Source: Candidatus Magasanikiibacteriota bacterium
GTDB lineage: Bacteria; Patescibacteriota; Patescibacteriia; Magasanikbacterales; GWA2-37-8
DNA: 64,000 bases
Direction of reading: 5' to 3'
Assembly: GCA_041665405.1 (NCBI GenBank)
Contig: JBAYIZ010000006.1
Coordinates: forward strand, 407-64,406
A program made the position numbers and the translations under genes. Below the pieces are notes generated by a model, which did not search any database, was not told the origin of the DNA, and saw only the letters and a list, made by a program, of their open reading frames with translations. Positions 10,770 through 63,975 of this stretch are shown here, one piece after another (position 1 is the stretch's first letter; each line of letters starts with the position of its first letter).

Positions 10770-11006
10770 ACTAATTATATTTAAGCCAATACTACGCTAT
10801 TTTGCACAAAAAATCAAGACAAACAAAAAACTTCCTATAAGAAGAAGTTTTTTCTATTCTCATGTCGTTAACAACAACAGGAAAATGGATGCCTGCTTTT
10901 TTGTACCGTGAGCGCAGGCGAATCTCACATATTTTCCTTGCGGCGACTAGCCACGCATTAATCACATGCGCAACTTATCAAGCCGAATTGTGTTGGTACG
11001 GCGCGA

Positions 11007-11420
11007 TCAGCGCGCCTTGGGGGCGGCTGCTTCTCGCAGTTCGGCCAGCTTCCTGTCTACCTTTGGGGTGCCGAGGTGTTGCTTGGCCGCGAACACGAGC
11101 TTTGCGCGGGCAGATTGCACCGCCCTGTTCGAAGGACGACGGCCGGGTGGAGTCAAAGCCACCACCGCCTGCAACATTGCCTCCGTCGTCTGCTCGTCAC
11201 CCTGCTTGTACTCCCTGAGCGTGAACAGGACCTTCTCCACCTTCTCGTGGAGATCCCAGGACTCGCGCCAATACGGCCTGTCTTCGCCGGAATGGAACTT
11301 GTCGAGCATGGAGTGAGCCCTCCTCGACCTGAAGTAGCAAAGGACCAACACAAGCATCGACACGATGTTCACCGCAACACTGATACTGTGCCACATAGAA
11401 ATCCCCACTTCCTTCACCAT
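11007..11420 (-). CDS. small single-pass membrane protein encoded in G+C-rich islet 1
   Basis: The frame has G/C-rich third positions. It has an N-terminal TM segment (ISMWHSISVAVNIVSMLVLVLCYF) and a helical charged tail. The start could be ATG 11420, or ATG 11396 (preceded by AAGGAAGTGG). The track start at 11486 is probably an over-extension. Confidence 0.5.
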   Translation of the reverse strand: MVKEVGISMWHSISVAVNIVSMLVLVLCYFRSRRAHSMLDKFHSGEDRPYWRESWDLHEKVEKVLFTLREYKQGDEQTTEAMLQAVVALTPPGRRPSNRAVQSARAKLVFAAKQHLGTPKVDRKLAELREAAAPKAR

Positions 11421-11571
11421 TGCTGACGAAGATGTTAGCTCTCTAGTTGGCGCGGGATGACACATCCACGCCCTTGCGACAAGCAAGCGGCAGCCCAGCT
11501 ACCTCTACTTTTTCCTTACCAAAAGAAAAACTAGCCGTAGCTTGGCCAAAATATATTTCAAAGAACGTGTA

Positions 11572-23348: not shown

Positions 23349-23822
23349 CTAGAAGGTGCCCGCCCCCAAGGCGAGTTGGACCTCCCATCCGAAGGAGTTC
23401 TTCTCCACGACGTCCTGTTGCCAGCCGACAGGGGCTTTCAGGAAAACGCGGGCACGCCACAGCTTCATACTGACCATCGGACCAGCCCCGTACAACAGCC
23501 CGTCGTTGCCCTTCTGTCCAGAAAGGACCCCGCCGAAGTTGAACGTGAGCCCATCAACGATCACGTCATAGGTGACGCCGTAGGCCATGCCGTAGCCCGA
23601 TACTTGGGTCGGAACCCAGAACTGGGCGAAGTGGGTCGTGTGACCATCCGGCTGGACCAAGTAGAGGCCCATGCCGATGTCGGTGCCGTCCTCAAACCCG
23701 GCGTGTTGCACGAACAGGCCGGCCCCACCAGTCTCCGGACCAGGACCCTCAGCCAGGGCGACTGAAGGAACTGCGAAAAGGACGACGCTCACGATGACGA
23801 AAAACCACGCGATGTGCTTCAT
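23349..23822 (-). CDS. secreted small beta-barrel-like (OMP-like) protein encoded in G+C-rich islet 2
   Basis: ATG 23822 is preceded by GGAG at 7 nt. Signal peptide is MKHIAWFFVIVSVVLFAVPSVALA|EG. It has Gly/aromatic-rich alternating strands and a C-terminal ...LALGAGTF. Third codon positions are G/C-rich. The track start at 23957 lies in the AT-rich leader and is probably spurious. Confidence 0.6.
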   Translation of the reverse strand: MKHIAWFFVIVSVVLFAVPSVALAEGPGPETGGAGLFVQHAGFEDGTDIGMGLYLVQPDGHTTHFAQFWVPTQVSGYGMAYGVTYDVIVDGLTFNFGGVLSGQKGNDGLLYGAGPMVSMKLWRARVFLKAPVGWQQDVVEKNSFGWEVQLALGAGTF

Positions 23823-23994
23823 GGATTTACTCCGAAAACTAGAGTTCATCGGTACCCAGCCGACACACCACGCGACAATCATTGTCGAGAGGTAAGGGTG
23901 ATTATTTATTCCTATATACATTAGAAATACATAATTTCCTTTACCTCTTTGAGACATTATTTATCCATTATAATTTAAAAAGAACTAACTGAAC

Positions 23995-25154: not shown

Positions 25155-25240
25155 CAAAGGGTAACTTTTTCGCTTTTTTTGCCCGCGAGGGCAAAAGGAT
25201 GAGCCTCGGCTCATAACCCGCTCAAAAGTAACCCTTTGCT
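25155..25240 (+). ncRNA. candidate structured RNA / terminator-embedded repeat, copy 1
   Basis: Outer stem is GCAAAGGGT.../...ACCCTTTGC. It encloses the conserved core TTTTTCGCTTTTTTTGCCCGCGAGGGCAAAAGGATGAGCCTCGGCTCATAACCCGCTCAAAAG. Related copies are at 38645 and 48340. Confidence 0.5.
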
Positions 25241-38644: not shown

Positions 38645-38739
38645 AAAAAACTTTTATTTTATTTCGCTTTTTTTGCCCGCGAGGGCAAAAGGATGAAGCC
38701 GCGGCTTCATAACCCGCTCAATTAAAATAAAAGTTTTTT
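38645..38739 (+). ncRNA. candidate structured RNA / terminator-embedded repeat, copy 2
   Basis: A 17-bp outer stem (AAAAAACTTTTATTTTA/TAAAATAAAAGTTTTTT) encloses the core TTTCGCTTTTTTTGCCCGCGAGGGCAAAAGGATGAAGCCGCGGCTTCATAACCCGCTCAA. Confidence 0.5.
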
Positions 38740-48339: not shown

Positions 48340-48437
48340 AACATCCCAGACAATGACTTTTTCGCTTTTTTCGACCGCGAGGTCGAAAGGATGAGCCTCG
48401 GCTCATAACCCGCTCAAAAGTAATTGTCTGGGATGTT
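48340..48437 (+). ncRNA. candidate structured RNA / terminator-embedded repeat, copy 3
   Basis: A 15-bp perfect outer stem (AACATCCCAGACAAT/ATTGTCTGGGATGTT) is followed by a T7 run. It encloses the core TTTTTCGCTTTTTTCGACCGCGAGGTCGAAAGGATGAGCCTCGGCTCATAACCCGCTCAAAAG. Confidence 0.55.
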
Positions 48438-48453
48438 TTTTTGTACCATAAAA

Positions 48454-48482
48454 TTGACTTTGTGTTTTTTATCAAGTAAAAT
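48454..48482 (+). promoter_or_regulatory. sigma70-type promoter reading into G+C-rich islet 4
   Basis: TTGACT-17 nt-TAAAAT. The composition switches to G+C-rich about 6 nt downstream. Confidence 0.6.
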
Positions 48483-48576
48483 ATTTTTGTGTCCCAAACG
48501 ACCGACGGTTCGCCGTTCGGTCACAACGACCACTTGCACCGCTCATCGGTGGTGGTCTCGAAAAGGAGAGAGAGCC

Positions 48577-48798
48577 ATGCGTGTGCTTCCCTCGATCCTG
48601 AACCAGAGCCGGAGACGGAGCGACAATTCCGCCGATTGCGGGCAGGTCGCGAGCTCCGAGGCCGACTTCATCCACAGGCAACTGCTCGAGCATGGCTTCT
48701 GCTCGGACATGAAGGAGGGCGCCGTCGGCACCGCCAACATGGTCGGCATCGTCTGTTCGACCGCGGCCGGCCGCGGAGCAGTAGTCCTCCTGGTGTAG
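48577..48798 (+). CDS. 73-aa protein of unknown function encoded in G+C-rich islet 4
   Basis: AAGGAG sits 8 nt before the ATG. By my codon-by-codon read, G/C at codon position 3 is very high in this frame only. Sequence: MRVLPSILNQSRRRSDNSADCGQVASSEADFIHRQLLEHGFCSDMKEGAVGTANMVGIVCSTAAGRGAVVLLV. Confidence 0.55.
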   Translation: MRVLPSILNQSRRRSDNSADCGQVASSEADFIHRQLLEHGFCSDMKEGAVGTANMVGIVCSTAAGRGAVVLLV

Positions 48799-48827
48799 GG
48801 CTCAGCTTCGTACGAGACAACCAGTGC

Positions 48828-48881
48828 GGCCGGACCGGGAGCTCCTTCGGGGGTTTCTGGTCCGGCCGTCGTTTCCTTTTT
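48828..48881 (+). terminator. GC-rich hairpin terminator after the islet 4 ORF
   Basis: GGCCGGACC...GGTCCGGCC (9 bp), followed by gtcgTTTCCTTTTTATT. Confidence 0.55.
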
Positions 48882-48962
48882 ATTATATTTAATACTCAAA
48901 GCGGGTATTTTTTTATTGCTCAAAAAAGGGTTTGCGTGTAAAATAAGAACGAATAATATTTT

Positions 48963-55485: not shown

Positions 55486-56220
55486 ATGGAAAATTTGAAT
55501 ATTCTAAAAGAACTCGGTTTAGACGACCAAGAAGCGAGTGTATATATGGCTTTATTAAAATTGGGTGGATCTCAAGCCAGTGTTGTAGCCAAAGATGTTG
55601 GCATTAAACGGACAACAGTTTACCCTGTTTTGCAGGCGTTGGCGGCCAAAGGGATGGTAAATGTTTATTTTCGAAAAAACCGCCATTTCTATTATGCTCA
55701 AAAACCAAATAGAGTGGTGGGTATTTTCAAAAAGAAAATAGAATCATTTGAAAGTATTATTCCAATGTTGGAACTAGTTGAAAAAAAACAAGTGATGGCC
55801 ACGGGTTTGCGCTTTATTGAAACAGTTGAAGAATTAAAACAATTTTATAACGGAATTTTAGATGAGTATAAAGGGAAGCAATATCTGGCAATTGGAAATA
55901 CGGCGGCATGGGAGGGATTGGAACCAGAATTTTTTGTAAACTTTCGTAGACAAAGAGCAGAAAATAAAATTAAAACGAAATTACTATTAACATTTAATTC
56001 TGTCGAAATAAATCCAATAGAAACCTCGCTATTAAGAGAGTGGAAATATCTTCCTGAAAAATATAAATTTCAAAGTACGATAGATATTTTTAATGATAAA
56101 ATTTTGATTGTGAGTCCGGAGCTAAGTTCGTTGGCGGTGGTGATCGCGGTGCCGGCGATGACGGATATTTTTAAATCTGTTTTTGAGATGTTGTGGCAGA
56201 TGTTGCCGGAGGTGAAATAA
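55486..56220 (+). CDS. TrmB-family winged-HTH transcriptional regulator (paralog 1, short form)
   Basis: N-terminus LKELGLDDQEASVYMALLKLGGSQASVVAKDVGIKRTTVYPVLQALAAKGMV. A TTGACA-17-TAAAAT promoter lies at about 55413-55441. Confidence 0.8.
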   Translation: MENLNILKELGLDDQEASVYMALLKLGGSQASVVAKDVGIKRTTVYPVLQALAAKGMVNVYFRKNRHFYYAQKPNRVVGIFKKKIESFESIIPMLELVEKKQVMATGLRFIETVEELKQFYNGILDEYKGKQYLAIGNTAAWEGLEPEFFVNFRRQRAENKIKTKLLLTFNSVEINPIETSLLREWKYLPEKYKFQSTIDIFNDKILIVSPELSSLAVVIAVPAMTDIFKSVFEMLWQMLPEVK

Positions 56221-59948: not shown

Positions 59949-61118
59949 ATGCTGATAAAAGACCTCCAATCTATCGGTTTTACCAAGAATCTATCTGAGG
60001 TTTATTTGTCTTTAGCCCAATTGGGAGGCCAGGCCAAAGCTGGGGAAATCATCAAAAAGACAGGTTTACACCGAAATATCGTTTATATTTGTTTAGACAA
60101 ACTAATAGAAAAGCAATTATTAACTAAAACCGAAGAACGCGGTGTTACTATTTATAAAACACTAGATCCAGCCCGACTAATGAATGAAATTCGAGAAAAA
60201 GAACAATTAACAACAAATATTATTGAAGAAATTGAAGCATTAAAAAAGCATCCAGACACTCAAGAAATAATTGTCCACGAAGGTTTGGAAGGTTTTAGAA
60301 ATTTCAATCTCTATACTTTGAAAAAAATCGAAGAAGGTGGCACATTGCAAGTGCTTGGTTCCATTGGAGATAAATGGTTTGAATACATGGGTGAAGAAAA
60401 GTACAAAGAATATATAAAAATACAAAACAAGAAAAAAATTAAGTGGGAGATGATTACTTATTTTGATTCAAAACGCGACAAACAATTTATTAATGACTAT
60501 CCAGAATTATGCGAGGTAAAATTATTACCGCAGACATATGATAATCCGGCCAGCATTTATATTTTTGGAGATACAATTTCAATAAATATTTTTACCGAAC
60601 CATTTTCGGTGATTGAAATAAAAAATCGCGCGGTGGCGGATGTATATAGAAATTATTTTAGTTTGTTGTGGAACCAAGAAGTGTTTACCTATCGCGGTTG
60701 GGATGCGATTGATAAAATTTTGTGTGCGAATTTGGAAGATGGATTTACTTATGATGTTTTTGGGGCAACATATGGTGTGGGTACAAAAGAGGAACAAGAT
60801 CGCGTGTTGGAATTTTTTATGGAGAACCACAGAAAGACCGCACACTTTAAACCAAATAGACGATTGATATTTTTTGAACAAGATCGTGAGCAGGCGGCTA
60901 AAGAAGTTTCTCCGTTGGATGCAGACACTCGTAAAAATGTTCGTTTGCGTTTTCTGTCAGACAAATATTTTTCGCCGATGGAGACACATTTGTTTAAAGA
61001 TAAAGTAATTTTAATTTTTTCTTTTGGCGAACCAATCGCGACAGTTTATACCAATCCAAAAATAATTGAAGTTTACAAAAAACAATTTGAGTTGTGGTGG
61101 GGGATGTCGGTGGAATAA
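59949..61118 (+). CDS. TrmB-like wHTH regulator with a large C-terminal domain (paralog 2)
   Basis: N-terminus LQSIGFTKNLSEVYLSLAQLGGQAKAGEIIKKTGLHRNIVYICLDKLIEKQLL. It shares GLHRN(I/L)VY and (L/F)WNQE with paralog 3. Confidence 0.75.
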   Translation: MLIKDLQSIGFTKNLSEVYLSLAQLGGQAKAGEIIKKTGLHRNIVYICLDKLIEKQLLTKTEERGVTIYKTLDPARLMNEIREKEQLTTNIIEEIEALKKHPDTQEIIVHEGLEGFRNFNLYTLKKIEEGGTLQVLGSIGDKWFEYMGEEKYKEYIKIQNKKKIKWEMITYFDSKRDKQFINDYPELCEVKLLPQTYDNPASIYIFGDTISINIFTEPFSVIEIKNRAVADVYRNYFSLLWNQEVFTYRGWDAIDKILCANLEDGFTYDVFGATYGVGTKEEQDRVLEFFMENHRKTAHFKPNRRLIFFEQDREQAAKEVSPLDADTRKNVRLRFLSDKYFSPMETHLFKDKVILIFSFGEPIATVYTNPKIIEVYKKQFELWWGMSVE

Positions 61119-61128
61119 AATTTAAAAA

Positions 61129-61162
61129 CAAAAAACCGATTGCAGATTGCAGTCGGTTTTTT
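61129..61162 (+). terminator. conserved TrmB-module terminator (copy 2)
   Basis: AAAAAACCGATTGCagatTGCAGTCGGTTTTTTG. Confidence 0.8.
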
Positions 61163-61308
61163 GATAACTTCTTGAGCTCAACAAGATGTTGGAGTGAATG
61201 AGCGGTCACTACCAGCCGCGTGACTTTTTGTTTTACCGGTAGTCACAAACCGGATGATCCCAGACCCCTCATCAGCGGACCATTGAATTGTCCTGAAACT
61301 TTGCACCT

Positions 61309-61707
61309 CTACGCCTGTTCGCGACAGGGCAGGCATTCGTAGCCCACCCAAAGGCCGTTGGCAAAGGTGAAGTCGAAGTCCCAGCGGTTGTCACCACCGT
61401 ACCAGCAGAGGCTGGCAGTGTATTTGAATCCATTGGGGGCGAGAAGAGTGGTGCCAGTGAGCACGATCTTCTTCTTACGCATTTTCATCGGAATCTGGTC
61501 TTGGTGGTCAAGCAGTTGCTGGCCGTCACGCACTCCAAGGACGCCATTCCGACGACGTGCGCGTTCGCGCAATTCGGAGCCCTTGATGCATTCCTCGCCA
61601 CGCTTGAGGCACGACTCGATCCGGAGCTTGTTGATGTGAAGATCTGCAATTGGATCACAGTCTTCCACAACCTTAAACTCCACCCTGTTCCAAACGAATG
61701 TATTCAC
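61309..61707 (-). CDS. 132-aa cytoplasmic protein of unknown function encoded in G+C-rich islet 5
   Basis: The GTG start is preceded by AAGGAGG at 6 nt. The frame is open across the whole G+C-rich segment. No signal peptide and no family recognised. Confidence 0.6.
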   Translation of the reverse strand: MNTFVWNRVEFKVVEDCDPIADLHINKLRIESCLKRGEECIKGSELRERARRRNGVLGVRDGQQLLDHQDQIPMKMRKKKIVLTGTTLLAPNGFKYTASLCWYGGDNRWDFDFTFANGLWVGYECLPCREQA

Positions 61708-61775
61708 CTTTCACCTCCTTGCGGTTCTGACAGGTTGGTTGCTCTGAAGAGAGCAATTGTTGTTAACAACTCAAT

Positions 61776-61804
61776 AAAATATCATATTTCACTTTATTGG
61801 TCAA
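61776..61804 (-). promoter_or_regulatory. sigma70-type promoter reading into G+C-rich islet 5
   Basis: Minus strand reads TTGACC-17 nt-TATTTT. It is homologous to the islet 6 promoter. Confidence 0.5.
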
Positions 61805-61865
61805 TCATTTTATCCCTAAAATTAGCAAAAAAATCAGATAAAAGCTGACAAAATTATGTTGGGGG

Positions 61866-61894
61866 TTGACTTTTTGGCTAAATTCATATAAAAT
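61866..61894 (+). promoter_or_regulatory. promoter of TrmB-like paralog 3
   Basis: TTGACT-17 nt-TAAAAT, followed by the shared TCATAAATAATATGAcAAT-ATG leader. Confidence 0.6.
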
Positions 61895-61918
61895 AATCAT
61901 CATAAATAATATGACAAT

Positions 61919-63031
61919 ATGTTAGAACAAAAACTAGAAAAACTTGGTTTTGGAAAAAACGAAGTGAAAGTATATCTAGCTCTTTTTGATTTGGGTAAAT
62001 GTAAAGCCAAACAAATCATTGATAACACAGGTCTTCATCGTAATCTTGTCTACACGGCACTTGATGATTTGATTGGAAAGAAATTAATTTCAAAAGTCGA
62101 GAGTAATGGAATTTTTTTATTTTGGGTTAATAGCCCTGAACTTTTGAACGAAATAATAGAAGAAAAAGCTATAACGGCAAAAGAAGTGATTGAACAATTA
62201 AAAAAGAAAAGCGCCAGTCAACCTCGTGAGATATTAATTTATGAAGGTGAAGAGGGTGTGAAGAAAAGTCGCACCAAAGTTTTAACATATGGAAAAGGAG
62301 ATACATTTTATATGTTAGGAACAAAAGCGAGTTTCTCGCCTTCGATGGAAAAATTTTCAAAGGAGTTTGATTCGCTAAGAATTAAAAAGGGAATTTATTC
62401 AAAAATTTTAGTCGAACATGATGTGAATAAAGATGAACTTAAACATCTTAATAAAATGCCACTTAGTGAAGCCAAGCACCTTCCTCTTGATTTGGAAATG
62501 CCTATTTGGTTTTCAGTTATTCAAGATTATTTGGAAATTGGCATCCCAGGCGTTGATCCACTGATTTTTTCGATAAAAAATAAAGCGGTGGCTGGGGCAA
62601 TAAAAAAATTTATAGATTTTTTCTGGAATCAAGAATCCGAAGTTGTTACAGGCGCAAAGGCTTTACAAGAGATTATGTTGGAATCCATTGATTATGGTGA
62701 GTTGAAAGGTATCGGCGCAAAAGGCAATTTTTTTGAAAATTATCCGGGATTTTTTAATGATATAAAAAAGCGAGCAGTAATGAAACAAGGACTGGTCTGG
62801 AGAAACATTGTTGATCCAAGTATGAAAGGGCATGAGATTACAAAATTTTTGTGGACTAAAACAAAATATAATTTATCCGATACAAAAAATCCCAATGTTG
62901 TTTGGTTGTATGGCCCGAAAGCTGTGATTATAAATTGGGCGGATAAAGAACCTGTGATGTTTGTTTCTACAAATAAGGCGCTAGTGCAAAGTTATAATGA
63001 TTATTTTGAGGAGATGTGGGGTAAAGATTAA
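61919..63031 (+). CDS. TrmB-like wHTH regulator with a large C-terminal domain (paralog 3)
   Basis: N-terminus MLEQKLEKLGFGKNEVKVYLALFDLGKCKAKQIIDNTGLHRNLVYTALDDLIGKKLI. Confidence 0.75.
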   Translation: MLEQKLEKLGFGKNEVKVYLALFDLGKCKAKQIIDNTGLHRNLVYTALDDLIGKKLISKVESNGIFLFWVNSPELLNEIIEEKAITAKEVIEQLKKKSASQPREILIYEGEEGVKKSRTKVLTYGKGDTFYMLGTKASFSPSMEKFSKEFDSLRIKKGIYSKILVEHDVNKDELKHLNKMPLSEAKHLPLDLEMPIWFSVIQDYLEIGIPGVDPLIFSIKNKAVAGAIKKFIDFFWNQESEVVTGAKALQEIMLESIDYGELKGIGAKGNFFENYPGFFNDIKKRAVMKQGLVWRNIVDPSMKGHEITKFLWTKTKYNLSDTKNPNVVWLYGPKAVIINWADKEPVMFVSTNKALVQSYNDYFEEMWGKD

Positions 63032-63075: not shown

Positions 63076-63168
63076 ATTACTTCTTGAACCAAAATGATTT
63101 AGTTCGAAAAGTAGCTGCGCGTCTTTTTGACCGGGACGCGCAACCGGGTGAGAGGGTGGAACCGGACG

Positions 63169-63660
63169 TCACAGGAATGCGATTCCCAGTGACGGCTGGA
63201 ACAGCAACGAGTAATCGCCGCCATCCAGGGTCTTCGCCAGTCCAAATGCCATGGACAGCGACAGACCGTTTCCGATTCCGTAGGCCAGGCCGGTGCCCAG
63301 ACCAACCAAGTCGGAAGACGGCTTGCCGCCGTAACCGACATTGCGCTGGTAGAGCACGCTGGCCTGGGTGGACCAACGATCAGTCAGTCCCAGCGACACA
63401 CCTGCAGAGAGGCGTGGGCTGGGCTTGCAACTGTCGTTGGGGGTGGCCAGCCCGATTCCGCCCGCGATGGACACCTTGTTGGAGACCTTCTCCGACAGCG
63501 AGATGTCGTAGCGGGTGGAGGCCGAGGCGGGGGTGAGCCCGTCCTTCAGGAGGACGACGTAGCCCTCCCGGATGTTGAAGACCGGGGTCAGGGCGCTGGC
63601 CGAAGCCGAGACACCGCTCAGAACCACGGCCACCAGGACGATCAGGGTGGAGATCTTCAT
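63169..63660 (-). CDS. secreted small beta-barrel-like (OMP-like) protein encoded in G+C-rich islet 6
   Basis: GAGGTG lies 4 nt before the ATG. Signal peptide is MKISTLIVLVAVVLSGVSASASA|L. The protein has Gly-rich alternating strands and a C-terminal ...QPSLGIAFL. Confidence 0.6.
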   Translation of the reverse strand: MKISTLIVLVAVVLSGVSASASALTPVFNIREGYVVLLKDGLTPASASTRYDISLSEKVSNKVSIAGGIGLATPNDSCKPSPRLSAGVSLGLTDRWSTQASVLYQRNVGYGGKPSSDLVGLGTGLAYGIGNGLSLSMAFGLAKTLDGGDYSLLFQPSLGIAFL

Positions 63661-63736
63661 GGGACACCTCTGCAGACCAGAAGGCCTGCCATCTGCATTA
63701 GTCAGTCAGGTTGCATTTGCGAACCCATACTGCTTT

Positions 63737-63786
63737 TGCCAGACGAAATAGTTCACAATAGATCTTATGGACTATTTCGTCTGGCA
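63737..63786 (-). promoter_or_regulatory. 16-bp perfect hairpin in the 5' leader of the islet 6 gene
   Basis: TGCCAGACGAAATAGT-N18-ACTATTTCGTCTGGCA lies between the promoter (63829-57) and the ATG (63660). No T-run follows it. Confidence 0.5.
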
Positions 63787-63828
63787 GTTGTAAAGAACAG
63801 TGTTACGGGTTATTGATCGTAACAAGCC

Positions 63829-63857
63829 AGTATATCATATATTTGTATACTTGTCAA
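63829..63857 (-). promoter_or_regulatory. sigma70-type promoter reading into G+C-rich islet 6
   Basis: Minus strand reads TTGACA-17 nt-TATACT. Confidence 0.6.
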
Positions 63858-63920
63858 GGGTTTTTTGGCTAAAACTAGCTAAAAACAAGCATAAATAAGG
63901 ATGACAAAAAAATCATAAAC

Positions 63921-63949
63921 TTGACAAATTTGGCTAATCATAGTATAAT
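63921..63949 (+). promoter_or_regulatory. promoter of TrmB-like paralog 4
   Basis: TTGACA-17 nt-TATAAT, followed by the shared TCATAAATAATATGAtAAT-ATG leader. Confidence 0.6.
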
Positions 63950-63975
63950 AATATTGTCATAAATAATATGATAAT

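Follow-up and report, generated by a model that had tools for sequence, protein, structure and literature searches.

The window analyzed here, a 64,000-nucleotide stretch of a Candidatus Magasanikiibacteriota contig, is AT-rich (about 0.30-0.45 GC) and contains several short islets of 0.50-0.64 GC. One islet, at about 61200-61700, holds a 132-aa gene on the minus strand with a TrmB-like regulator on either side. The features of this locus, in window coordinates, are the following.

59949-61118, plus strand: TrmB1, a TrmB-like regulator (Pfam PF01978, E 2.6e-8), convergent with the 132-aa gene.
61129-61163, either direction: bidirectional intrinsic terminator formed by inverted repeat I1, whose 16-nt arms are 94% complementary, with A and T runs on its flanks.
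61176-61308, minus strand: GC-rich 3′ UTR, more structured than shuffled sequence (fold z -2.5).
61205-61234, plus strand: GTCAC (61205-61209), ten nucleotides, GTGAC (61220-61224), then TTTTTGTTTT (61225-61234).
61309-61707, minus strand: coding sequence, 132 aa plus stop; its product is a C-type-lectin-like domain standing alone, with homology to the DGR variable proteins of Patescibacteria.
61312-61455, minus strand: residues 85-132, GTTLLAPNGFKYTASLCWYGGDNRWDFDFTFANGLWVGYECLPCREQA, placed by an alignment with TR/VR flags opposite the adenine-mutagenized variable repeat (VR) of homologs.
61720-61711, minus strand: Shine-Dalgarno sequence AAGGAGGTGA, read directly from the sequence, 3 nt (AAG) before GTG 61707.
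61739-61756, minus strand: leader hairpin TTGCTCT-cttc-AGAGCAA, present in the sequence.
61759-61770, minus strand: palindrome GTTGTTAACAAC in the 5′ leader, present in the sequence.
61804-61776, minus strand: sigma-70-like promoter TTGACC-17-TATTTT with a TG extended -10 box, from a promoter scan.
61779-61959, no strand assigned: divergent promoter region and first TrmB2 codons, homologous to 63832-64016 upstream of TrmB3.
61919-63031, plus strand: TrmB2, a TrmB-like regulator (Pfam PF01978, E 2.7e-10), divergent from the 132-aa gene.

Long ORFs easily arise in GC-rich DNA, and the islet contains three overlapping ORFs of more than 90 codons. The frame of the 132-aa ORF is settled by its codon-position GC pattern (GC1/GC2/GC3 = 0.59/0.39/0.67) and by 364 relatives of its product, and the call of a real protein-coding gene is strongly supported. 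The codon-position pattern and the homologs likewise show the islet to be coding rather than a non-coding RNA. A structured RNA was considered separately and rejected, as Rfam identified two tRNAs in the window and nothing in the islet. Annotations of the gene differ: one ENA gene call omits it altogether, and three start codons are in circulation, yielding proteins of 132 aa (an earlier sequence-only reading of this DNA), 124 aa (JGI) and 119 aa (NCBI). The first of these is GTG at 61707-61705, preceded on the minus strand by AAGGAGGTGAAAG; the ORF cannot extend further, because an in-frame TGA lies two codons 5′ of this GTG. Two features favor the 132-aa start, namely its Shine-Dalgarno sequence and the family motif (G)W/F-x-V-V-E-D, which aligns to residues 10-16, and we regard GTG 61707 as the best-supported candidate. 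The translation from it, 132 aa with six Cys, agrees with the peptide given in the sequence-only reading. A signal peptide is absent, which makes plausible the cytoplasmic location proposed in that reading, and the protein is probably cytoplasmic.

The features listed in the sequence-only reading (Shine-Dalgarno sequence, palindrome, hairpin, promoter, 3′ flank, peptide and six Cys) all lie where it had placed them, and its case for a real gene with this start, Shine-Dalgarno sequence and promoter is borne out. The small motifs near the gene are individually unremarkable. Allowing up to two mismatches, the palindrome GTTGTTAACAAC occurs 5 times against 5.07 expected, and we rejected it as a recurring operator on the grounds of this chance-level frequency. 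For the 5′ leader, predicted folding is no stronger than in shuffled controls (z -0.69); elements within this leader might serve as a TrmB operator. Downstream of the gene, the 3′ UTR contains a hairpin formed by GTGAC (61220-61224) and GTCAC (61242-61246), followed in the direction of transcription by the terminator at 61129-61163, which is common to TrmB1 on the plus strand and the 132-aa gene on the minus strand. The sequence-only reading did not include this terminator, and it is where the transcript of the 132-aa gene most plausibly ends. A search around the islet for terminal repeats or target-site duplications returned only short repeats at chance level.

To the sequence-only reading, the protein matched no recognizable family. 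This holds for curated libraries: Pfam, NCBIfam and PHROGs return nothing for the 132-aa ORF or for 58 relatives, and a PDB sequence search with the ORF was likewise empty. It does not hold for metagenomic sequence space, where the protein belongs, by sequence similarity, to a large family of Patescibacteria DGR variable proteins. A word-indexed protein search recovered only the gene itself and its profile version 11 proteins; a HMMER scan of 1.84 billion cluster representatives found 364 relatives at E<=1e-3, 34 of them at E<=1e-10, with a best phmmer E-value to the family of 2.5e-24. No relatives were found among viral contigs. The similarity spans the whole domain and extends to proteins with proven TR/VR pairs (tblastn to L001, L002, L003 and L005, 1e-11 to 1e-20). 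Identity to DGR variable proteins is 30-42%, and the closest homolog (P0003, on L025) is 40% identical. The near-invariant residues of the family are all retained in the 132-aa protein, and its reading frame is intact. The six Cys counted in the sequence-only reading are not conserved across the family. Tandem copies of the domain, two to four in number, occur in some members (L004 5482-6303, P0002, P0005 and P0039); L004 encodes a two-domain protein without a TR, on a 231-kb contig labeled Gammaproteobacteria with a local GC of 0.40.

AlphaFold and Foldseek had both been proposed as checks on the protein. The AF2 model is very confident (pLDDT 95.5, pTM 0.87) and predicts a C-type-lectin-like fold, with strands, two helices and C-terminal beta strands carrying the binding surface, and with structural similarity to CTLDs; many animal CTLDs, FGE/SUMF2 and EgtB were recorded in connection with its family. 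Foldseek gave no significant match in the PDB or BFVD, and it does not recover the structures of Mtd (Bordetella phage BPP-1, 1yu0) or TvpA (Treponema denticola, 2y3c) with this protein. Relative to Mtd and TvpA, the window protein has no detectable sequence similarity and low structural scores, is much smaller, and lacks trimerization or FGE-type elaborations.

We collected 30 family loci with DNA context (L001-L020 and L025-L034) from species-representative genomes, JGI metagenomes and exact look-ups. Four species-representative genomes carry the family, and three of the four are Patescibacteria: a Giovannonibacteria genome, a Saccharibacteria genome and an unclassified Patescibacteria bacterium. 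In the Patescibacteria homologs, the last ~42 codons are a DGR VR. The corresponding TR, which repeats the final 110-135 nt of the gene, lies 240-530 nt downstream, and in about nine independent loci, usually with bAvd and reverse transcriptase, it differs from the VR almost only at adenines. Mismatches between VR and TR fall at TR adenines in 18/20 cases in L001, 10/14 in L002, 20/26 in L003, 17/17 in L005, 23/24 in L017, 13/14 in L018, 15/15 in L019 and 17/19 in L031. The next genes in these cassettes encode a bAvd-family protein on the opposite strand (PF22296) and a reverse transcriptase (PF00078, RVT_1) with LGNLTSQ and YADD motifs, which together constitute canonical DGR architecture. 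Three loci (L001, L007 and L010) share a 100% identical reverse transcriptase and an identical N-terminal 130 aa, with VRs that differ at TR-adenine positions, indicating that the DGR element is active in natural populations.

It is already established that DGRs, with targets that are small and poor in domains, are abundant in CPR. Passages of Roux et al. (2021, PMC8144416) assign Patescibacteria their own DGR clade (RT clade 2), whose targets, by that account, have neither TM nor known domains and are probably new variants of C-Lec, and passages of Wu et al. (2018, PMC5758913) leave CPR VR classes as "unknown." The 132-aa protein is directly homologous (30-42% identity, E down to 1e-24) to variable proteins with demonstrably TR-templated C-termini, and it has in common with them a ~115-aa domain, the lack of Pfam domains and a GC-rich composition. 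Our results do not overturn current understanding, the DGR family and mechanism being already known. They place an apparent ORFan within a CPR DGR-target family, and they provide a family of the "unknown VR" class with a confident C-type-lectin-like model.

The 3′ ends of the family are conserved, reading ...CGCAAGTAG or ...GCAGCGAGTAG, and in the relatives an array of CT[TC]GG pentamers, often with 8-nt spacing, lies directly 3′ of the stop (for example L005 4051-4110, L013 6283-6340, L019 534-600 and L025 1340-1430). Within 90 nt after the stop, 26 of 27 loci carry 1-7 copies against 0.1-0.6 expected, the only relative with none being the two-domain, TR-less L004. Downstream of nine VRs we counted 29 copies in all, and downstream of the cognate TRs we counted none. 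One possibility is that in CPR DGRs the array labels the VR as the recipient, and as such might act as a recognition element for retrohoming; it did not turn up in the passages of the DGR literature consulted. Among independent loci with enough flank, about half have no adjacent TR (L004, L008, L013, L014, L016, L020, L025 and L033), so solitary copies are common in the family.

The window copy is such a solitary copy, and it differs from the cassette-borne variable proteins in lacking an adjacent TR, bAvd, reverse transcriptase, an N-terminal module and the CTYGG array, as well as in its C-terminal tail, which is divergent and has two inserted residues. With blastn, the ORF has no second copy in the window that could serve as TR, and with only ~190 nt between its stop codon and TrmB1 there is no room for one downstream. 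CPR reverse transcriptase and Avd queries gave no tblastn match in the window, and a six-frame search of the window with the family HMM found no copy besides the 132-aa ORF. A longer ENA assembly from the same population extends the window by 4.4 kb upstream and 9 kb downstream; the two loci drawn from it, L021 and L023, together cover positions 1-77450 of the 97.6-kb parent contig, ENA ERZ27249449:k141_170678. Reverse transcriptase and Avd were not detected by tblastn in L021, and no gene called in L021 or L023 is an RVT_1. No CT[TC]GG motif occurs 3′ of the stop (window 61219-61308), and the gene ends in ...CGCGAACAGGCGTAG rather than in either family sequence. Across positions 1-77450 of the contig, the gene is thus without a cognate TR, RT/bAvd or target-recognition cis-elements. 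Its 3′ UTR shows no convincing homology to the VR-TR spacers of relatives. At the N-terminus the relatives are longer by 40-90 residues, which include lipoprotein signals or either of two conserved helical modules; the 132-aa protein has no such N-terminal module.

The base composition of the VR-equivalent segment was compared with that of live elements. Its adenine fraction is 0.184, against 0.07-0.14 in live VRs and 0.18-0.28 in TRs. At ten family columns in which at least three independent TRs read AAY, the window copy has NNY codons in 9/10 cases, at residues 92, 94, 96, 101, 103, 112, 114, 118 and 123, vs 73/122 (60%) in the remainder of the ORF (Fisher p 0.054). This excess could be a weak trace left by adenine mutagenesis. 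The segment is identical in three assemblies, all from one sample or study, an identity that says nothing on population variation.

On balance we favor, as a probable though by no means secure reading, that the gene encodes a fixed-specificity, probably cytoplasmic C-type-lectin-like binding domain from DGR variable proteins, which does not diversify, has its own promoter and is probably controlled by TrmB2. The 132-aa protein would correspond to only the ligand-binding, C-type-lectin-like domain of CPR DGR variable proteins. In relatives, adenine-specific mutagenic retrohoming from the downstream TR rewrites the last ~42 codons, using bAvd and reverse transcriptase. The window copy lacks, through loss or from the outset, both this machinery and the 3′ cis-elements of the family, and in their absence it would act as a binding module of fixed specificity. 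Its expression would depend on its own sigma-70-type promoter and strong Shine-Dalgarno sequence, probably under the control of the divergent TrmB2. Such a gene would offer a natural example of a DGR target domain living without a retroelement, and a comparison with live targets may reveal the cis-elements on which retrohoming depends, the post-stop CTYGG array being the main candidate.

A different account of the same observations has residues ~92-123 diversified in trans by a cassette elsewhere in the Magasanikbacteria genome, which would make the gene a live remote target. The gene belongs to the family and its C-terminus aligns with genuine VRs, both in keeping with this, and the NNY codons at AAY columns would fit adenine mutagenesis, whether past or ongoing. 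The roughly half of family loci without an adjacent TR, most of which keep the CTYGG array, suggest that trans targets exist, and non-adjacent targets are documented for other DGRs in passages of Wu et al. (2018, PMC5758913). We nevertheless consider a remote target rather unlikely here, given that 77 kb of contig yielded no RT, Avd or TR, that the array and conserved 3′ end missing from this copy are present in every TR-linked relative, and that its adenine content is above that of live VRs. The same losses, extending to TR, Avd, RT, N-terminal module and 3′ cis-elements, might instead mean that the gene is what remains of a former DGR cassette, now without function and decaying in the manner of a pseudogene, a view to which the failure of one gene caller to report it also lends itself. 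This seems to us very improbable for a gene that keeps its frame and every near-invariant family residue, is predicted to fold with very high confidence, and has a strong Shine-Dalgarno sequence, an extended -10 promoter and a proper terminator.

The composition of the islet invites yet another explanation, namely recent transfer from a GC-rich donor, with the islet as cargo of a TrmB module and no specific relation to DGRs; the sequence-only reading had looked to a donor clade in this way. The gene stands at 0.55 GC against ~0.35 for the genome, with sharp boundaries, several other GC-rich islets contain unrelated ORFs, and the next islet has homologous flanks, as might be expected of a replaceable slot. 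The family as a whole, however, behaves similarly. Homologs have a GC of 0.45-0.64, with 29/30 at >=0.52, in loci of 0.37-0.58, and L015 is the only one that is not clearly GC-rich relative to its own locus. In four complete cassettes (L001, L003, L005 and L019), the variable-protein gene upstream of the VR has a GC of 0.50-0.60 and a GC3 of 0.54-0.84, whereas the reverse transcriptase has 0.35-0.39, like the host genome. GC-rich homologs alongside AT-rich cassette reverse transcriptases make GC-richness a family trait rather than a donor signature; it is typical of the variable-protein family and does not in itself point to a GC-rich donor. Transfer from such a donor is further at odds with the Patescibacteria origin of three of the four species-representative genomes carrying the family, and with the absence of a TrmB neighbor from all 28 other loci searched, and we judge it improbable. 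More generally, a GC-rich islet in an AT-rich CPR genome is not necessarily a sign of foreign DNA.

Returning to the reading of a fixed-specificity binding domain, its regulatory component concerns the flanking TrmB genes. The islet lies between two TrmB-like paralogs: TrmB1 and TrmB2 score 34.0 and 40.4 bits for PF01978 against a cutoff of 25.6, which places both in the TrmB family, and are 31% identical to each other. From its divergent arrangement, we infer that TrmB2 is a local regulator of the 132-aa gene. Like known TrmB-family local regulators, it is a PF01978 winged-helix regulator divergent from a gene across a 211-bp intergenic region, and neighboring paralogs are likewise divergent from ABC transporter and radical-SAM/methyltransferase operons. 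It differs from them in that no operator motif is established here and no sugar-metabolism target is evident, and the association with the variable-protein family is unique to this genome. Co-occurrence with TrmB-like neighbors in other genomes, which the sequence-only reading had proposed as a check, was not observed: a TrmB-like gene is near the family in 0/28 other loci (L001-L020, L025 and L028-L034; tblastn E<1e-3). There is thus no general TrmB/variable-protein module.

Locally, the idea of a module fared better, as the arrangement is duplicated. The divergent promoter region with the first TrmB2 codons (61779-61959) matches 63832-64016 with 72% identity over 188 nt (blastn E 1e-16; also repeat D5). 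A homologous promoter, TTGACA-17-TATACT with TG (63857-63829), precedes the next GC-rich ORF at 63169-63660. At the same distance from this promoter lies GTGAACTATTTCGTCTGG (MNYFVW), which opens a 16-codon uORF and corresponds to GTGAATACATTCGTTTGG (MNTFVW) of the 132-aa gene, with 13/18 nt identical. The 3′ hairpin recurs with two compensatory pairs, GTGAC/GTCAC here vs GCGTC/GACGC at 63088-63170 in the islet after TrmB2, and the same terminator element lies 3′ of TrmB0, TrmB1, TrmB2 and TrmB3. The cargo ORFs of the two slots are unrelated. These similarities, seen in two copies only, suggest a conserved regulatory slot with exchangeable content. Family homology of the 132-aa protein begins only at about residue 10, which suggests that the lectin-like domain is fused to the first codons resident in the slot. 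A speculative extension, which we think doubtful, is that tandem TrmB paralogs form expression slots, each with a shared divergent promoter, leader, MN(T/Y)FVW start, 3′ hairpin and terminator, that take up swapped, unrelated GC-rich genes; the 132-aa gene would then be a DGR domain, stripped of its retroelement and N-terminal module, that became fused in frame to the resident start. If true, TrmB slots would amount to a cassette-like gene-capture system in a CPR genome.

Several further features of the region were recorded. At least six TrmB-family genes lie within about 20 kb (window 55486-56220, 59949-61118, 61919-63031 and 63969 onward; L021 12058-14010, 15370-16188 and 18743-19489), four of which share the terminator element described above. 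Several genes of this cluster are divergent from different operons, one encoding radical-SAM, methyltransferase and aminotransferase proteins and another an NMT1-type ABC transporter.

The slot equivalent to that of the 132-aa gene, after TrmB2, is occupied by a second GC-rich islet (window 63088-63968). It contains a 163-aa ORF (63169-63660, minus strand) whose product has a signal peptide and matches OMP_b-brl weakly (E 0.0013); one gene caller chose an overlapping plus-strand ORF in its place. The 163-aa ORF is preceded by the 16-codon uORF MNYFVWQKQYGFANAT (63756 downward), and a 14-bp perfect inverted repeat, CCAGACGAAATAGT/ACTATTTCGTCTGG, overlaps the uORF start.

Further GC-rich islets (0.50-0.63 GC), with ORFs that lack Pfam matches, lie at window 10860-11490, 23349-23957 and 48424-48941 and at L021 17348-18565 and 19767-20321. 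Paralogy among the GC-rich islet ORFs was considered and rejected, as BLASTP found none, and when two GC-rich ORFs farther down the contig were compared with the family profile by hhalign, the results were weak (L021 17348-17932, 194 aa, E 0.034, hhalign probability 1.5%). The 202-aa ORF at 23349-23957 has an internal signal/TM segment, and the islet at 48.4 kb holds three overlapping ORFs. A 68-nt repeat comprising two GC-rich hairpins (…TTTGCCCGCGAGGGCAAA…GATGAGCCTCGGCTCATAACCCGCTC…) occurs at 25164-25231, 38658-38725 and 48356-48423 with 69-94% identity, one copy lying between tRNA-Cys and the 48.4-kb islet. Upstream of the window, L023 13725-14720 contains a LAGLIDADG-type ORF (weak Pfam match) and two DUF2975 genes adjoining an HTH gene.
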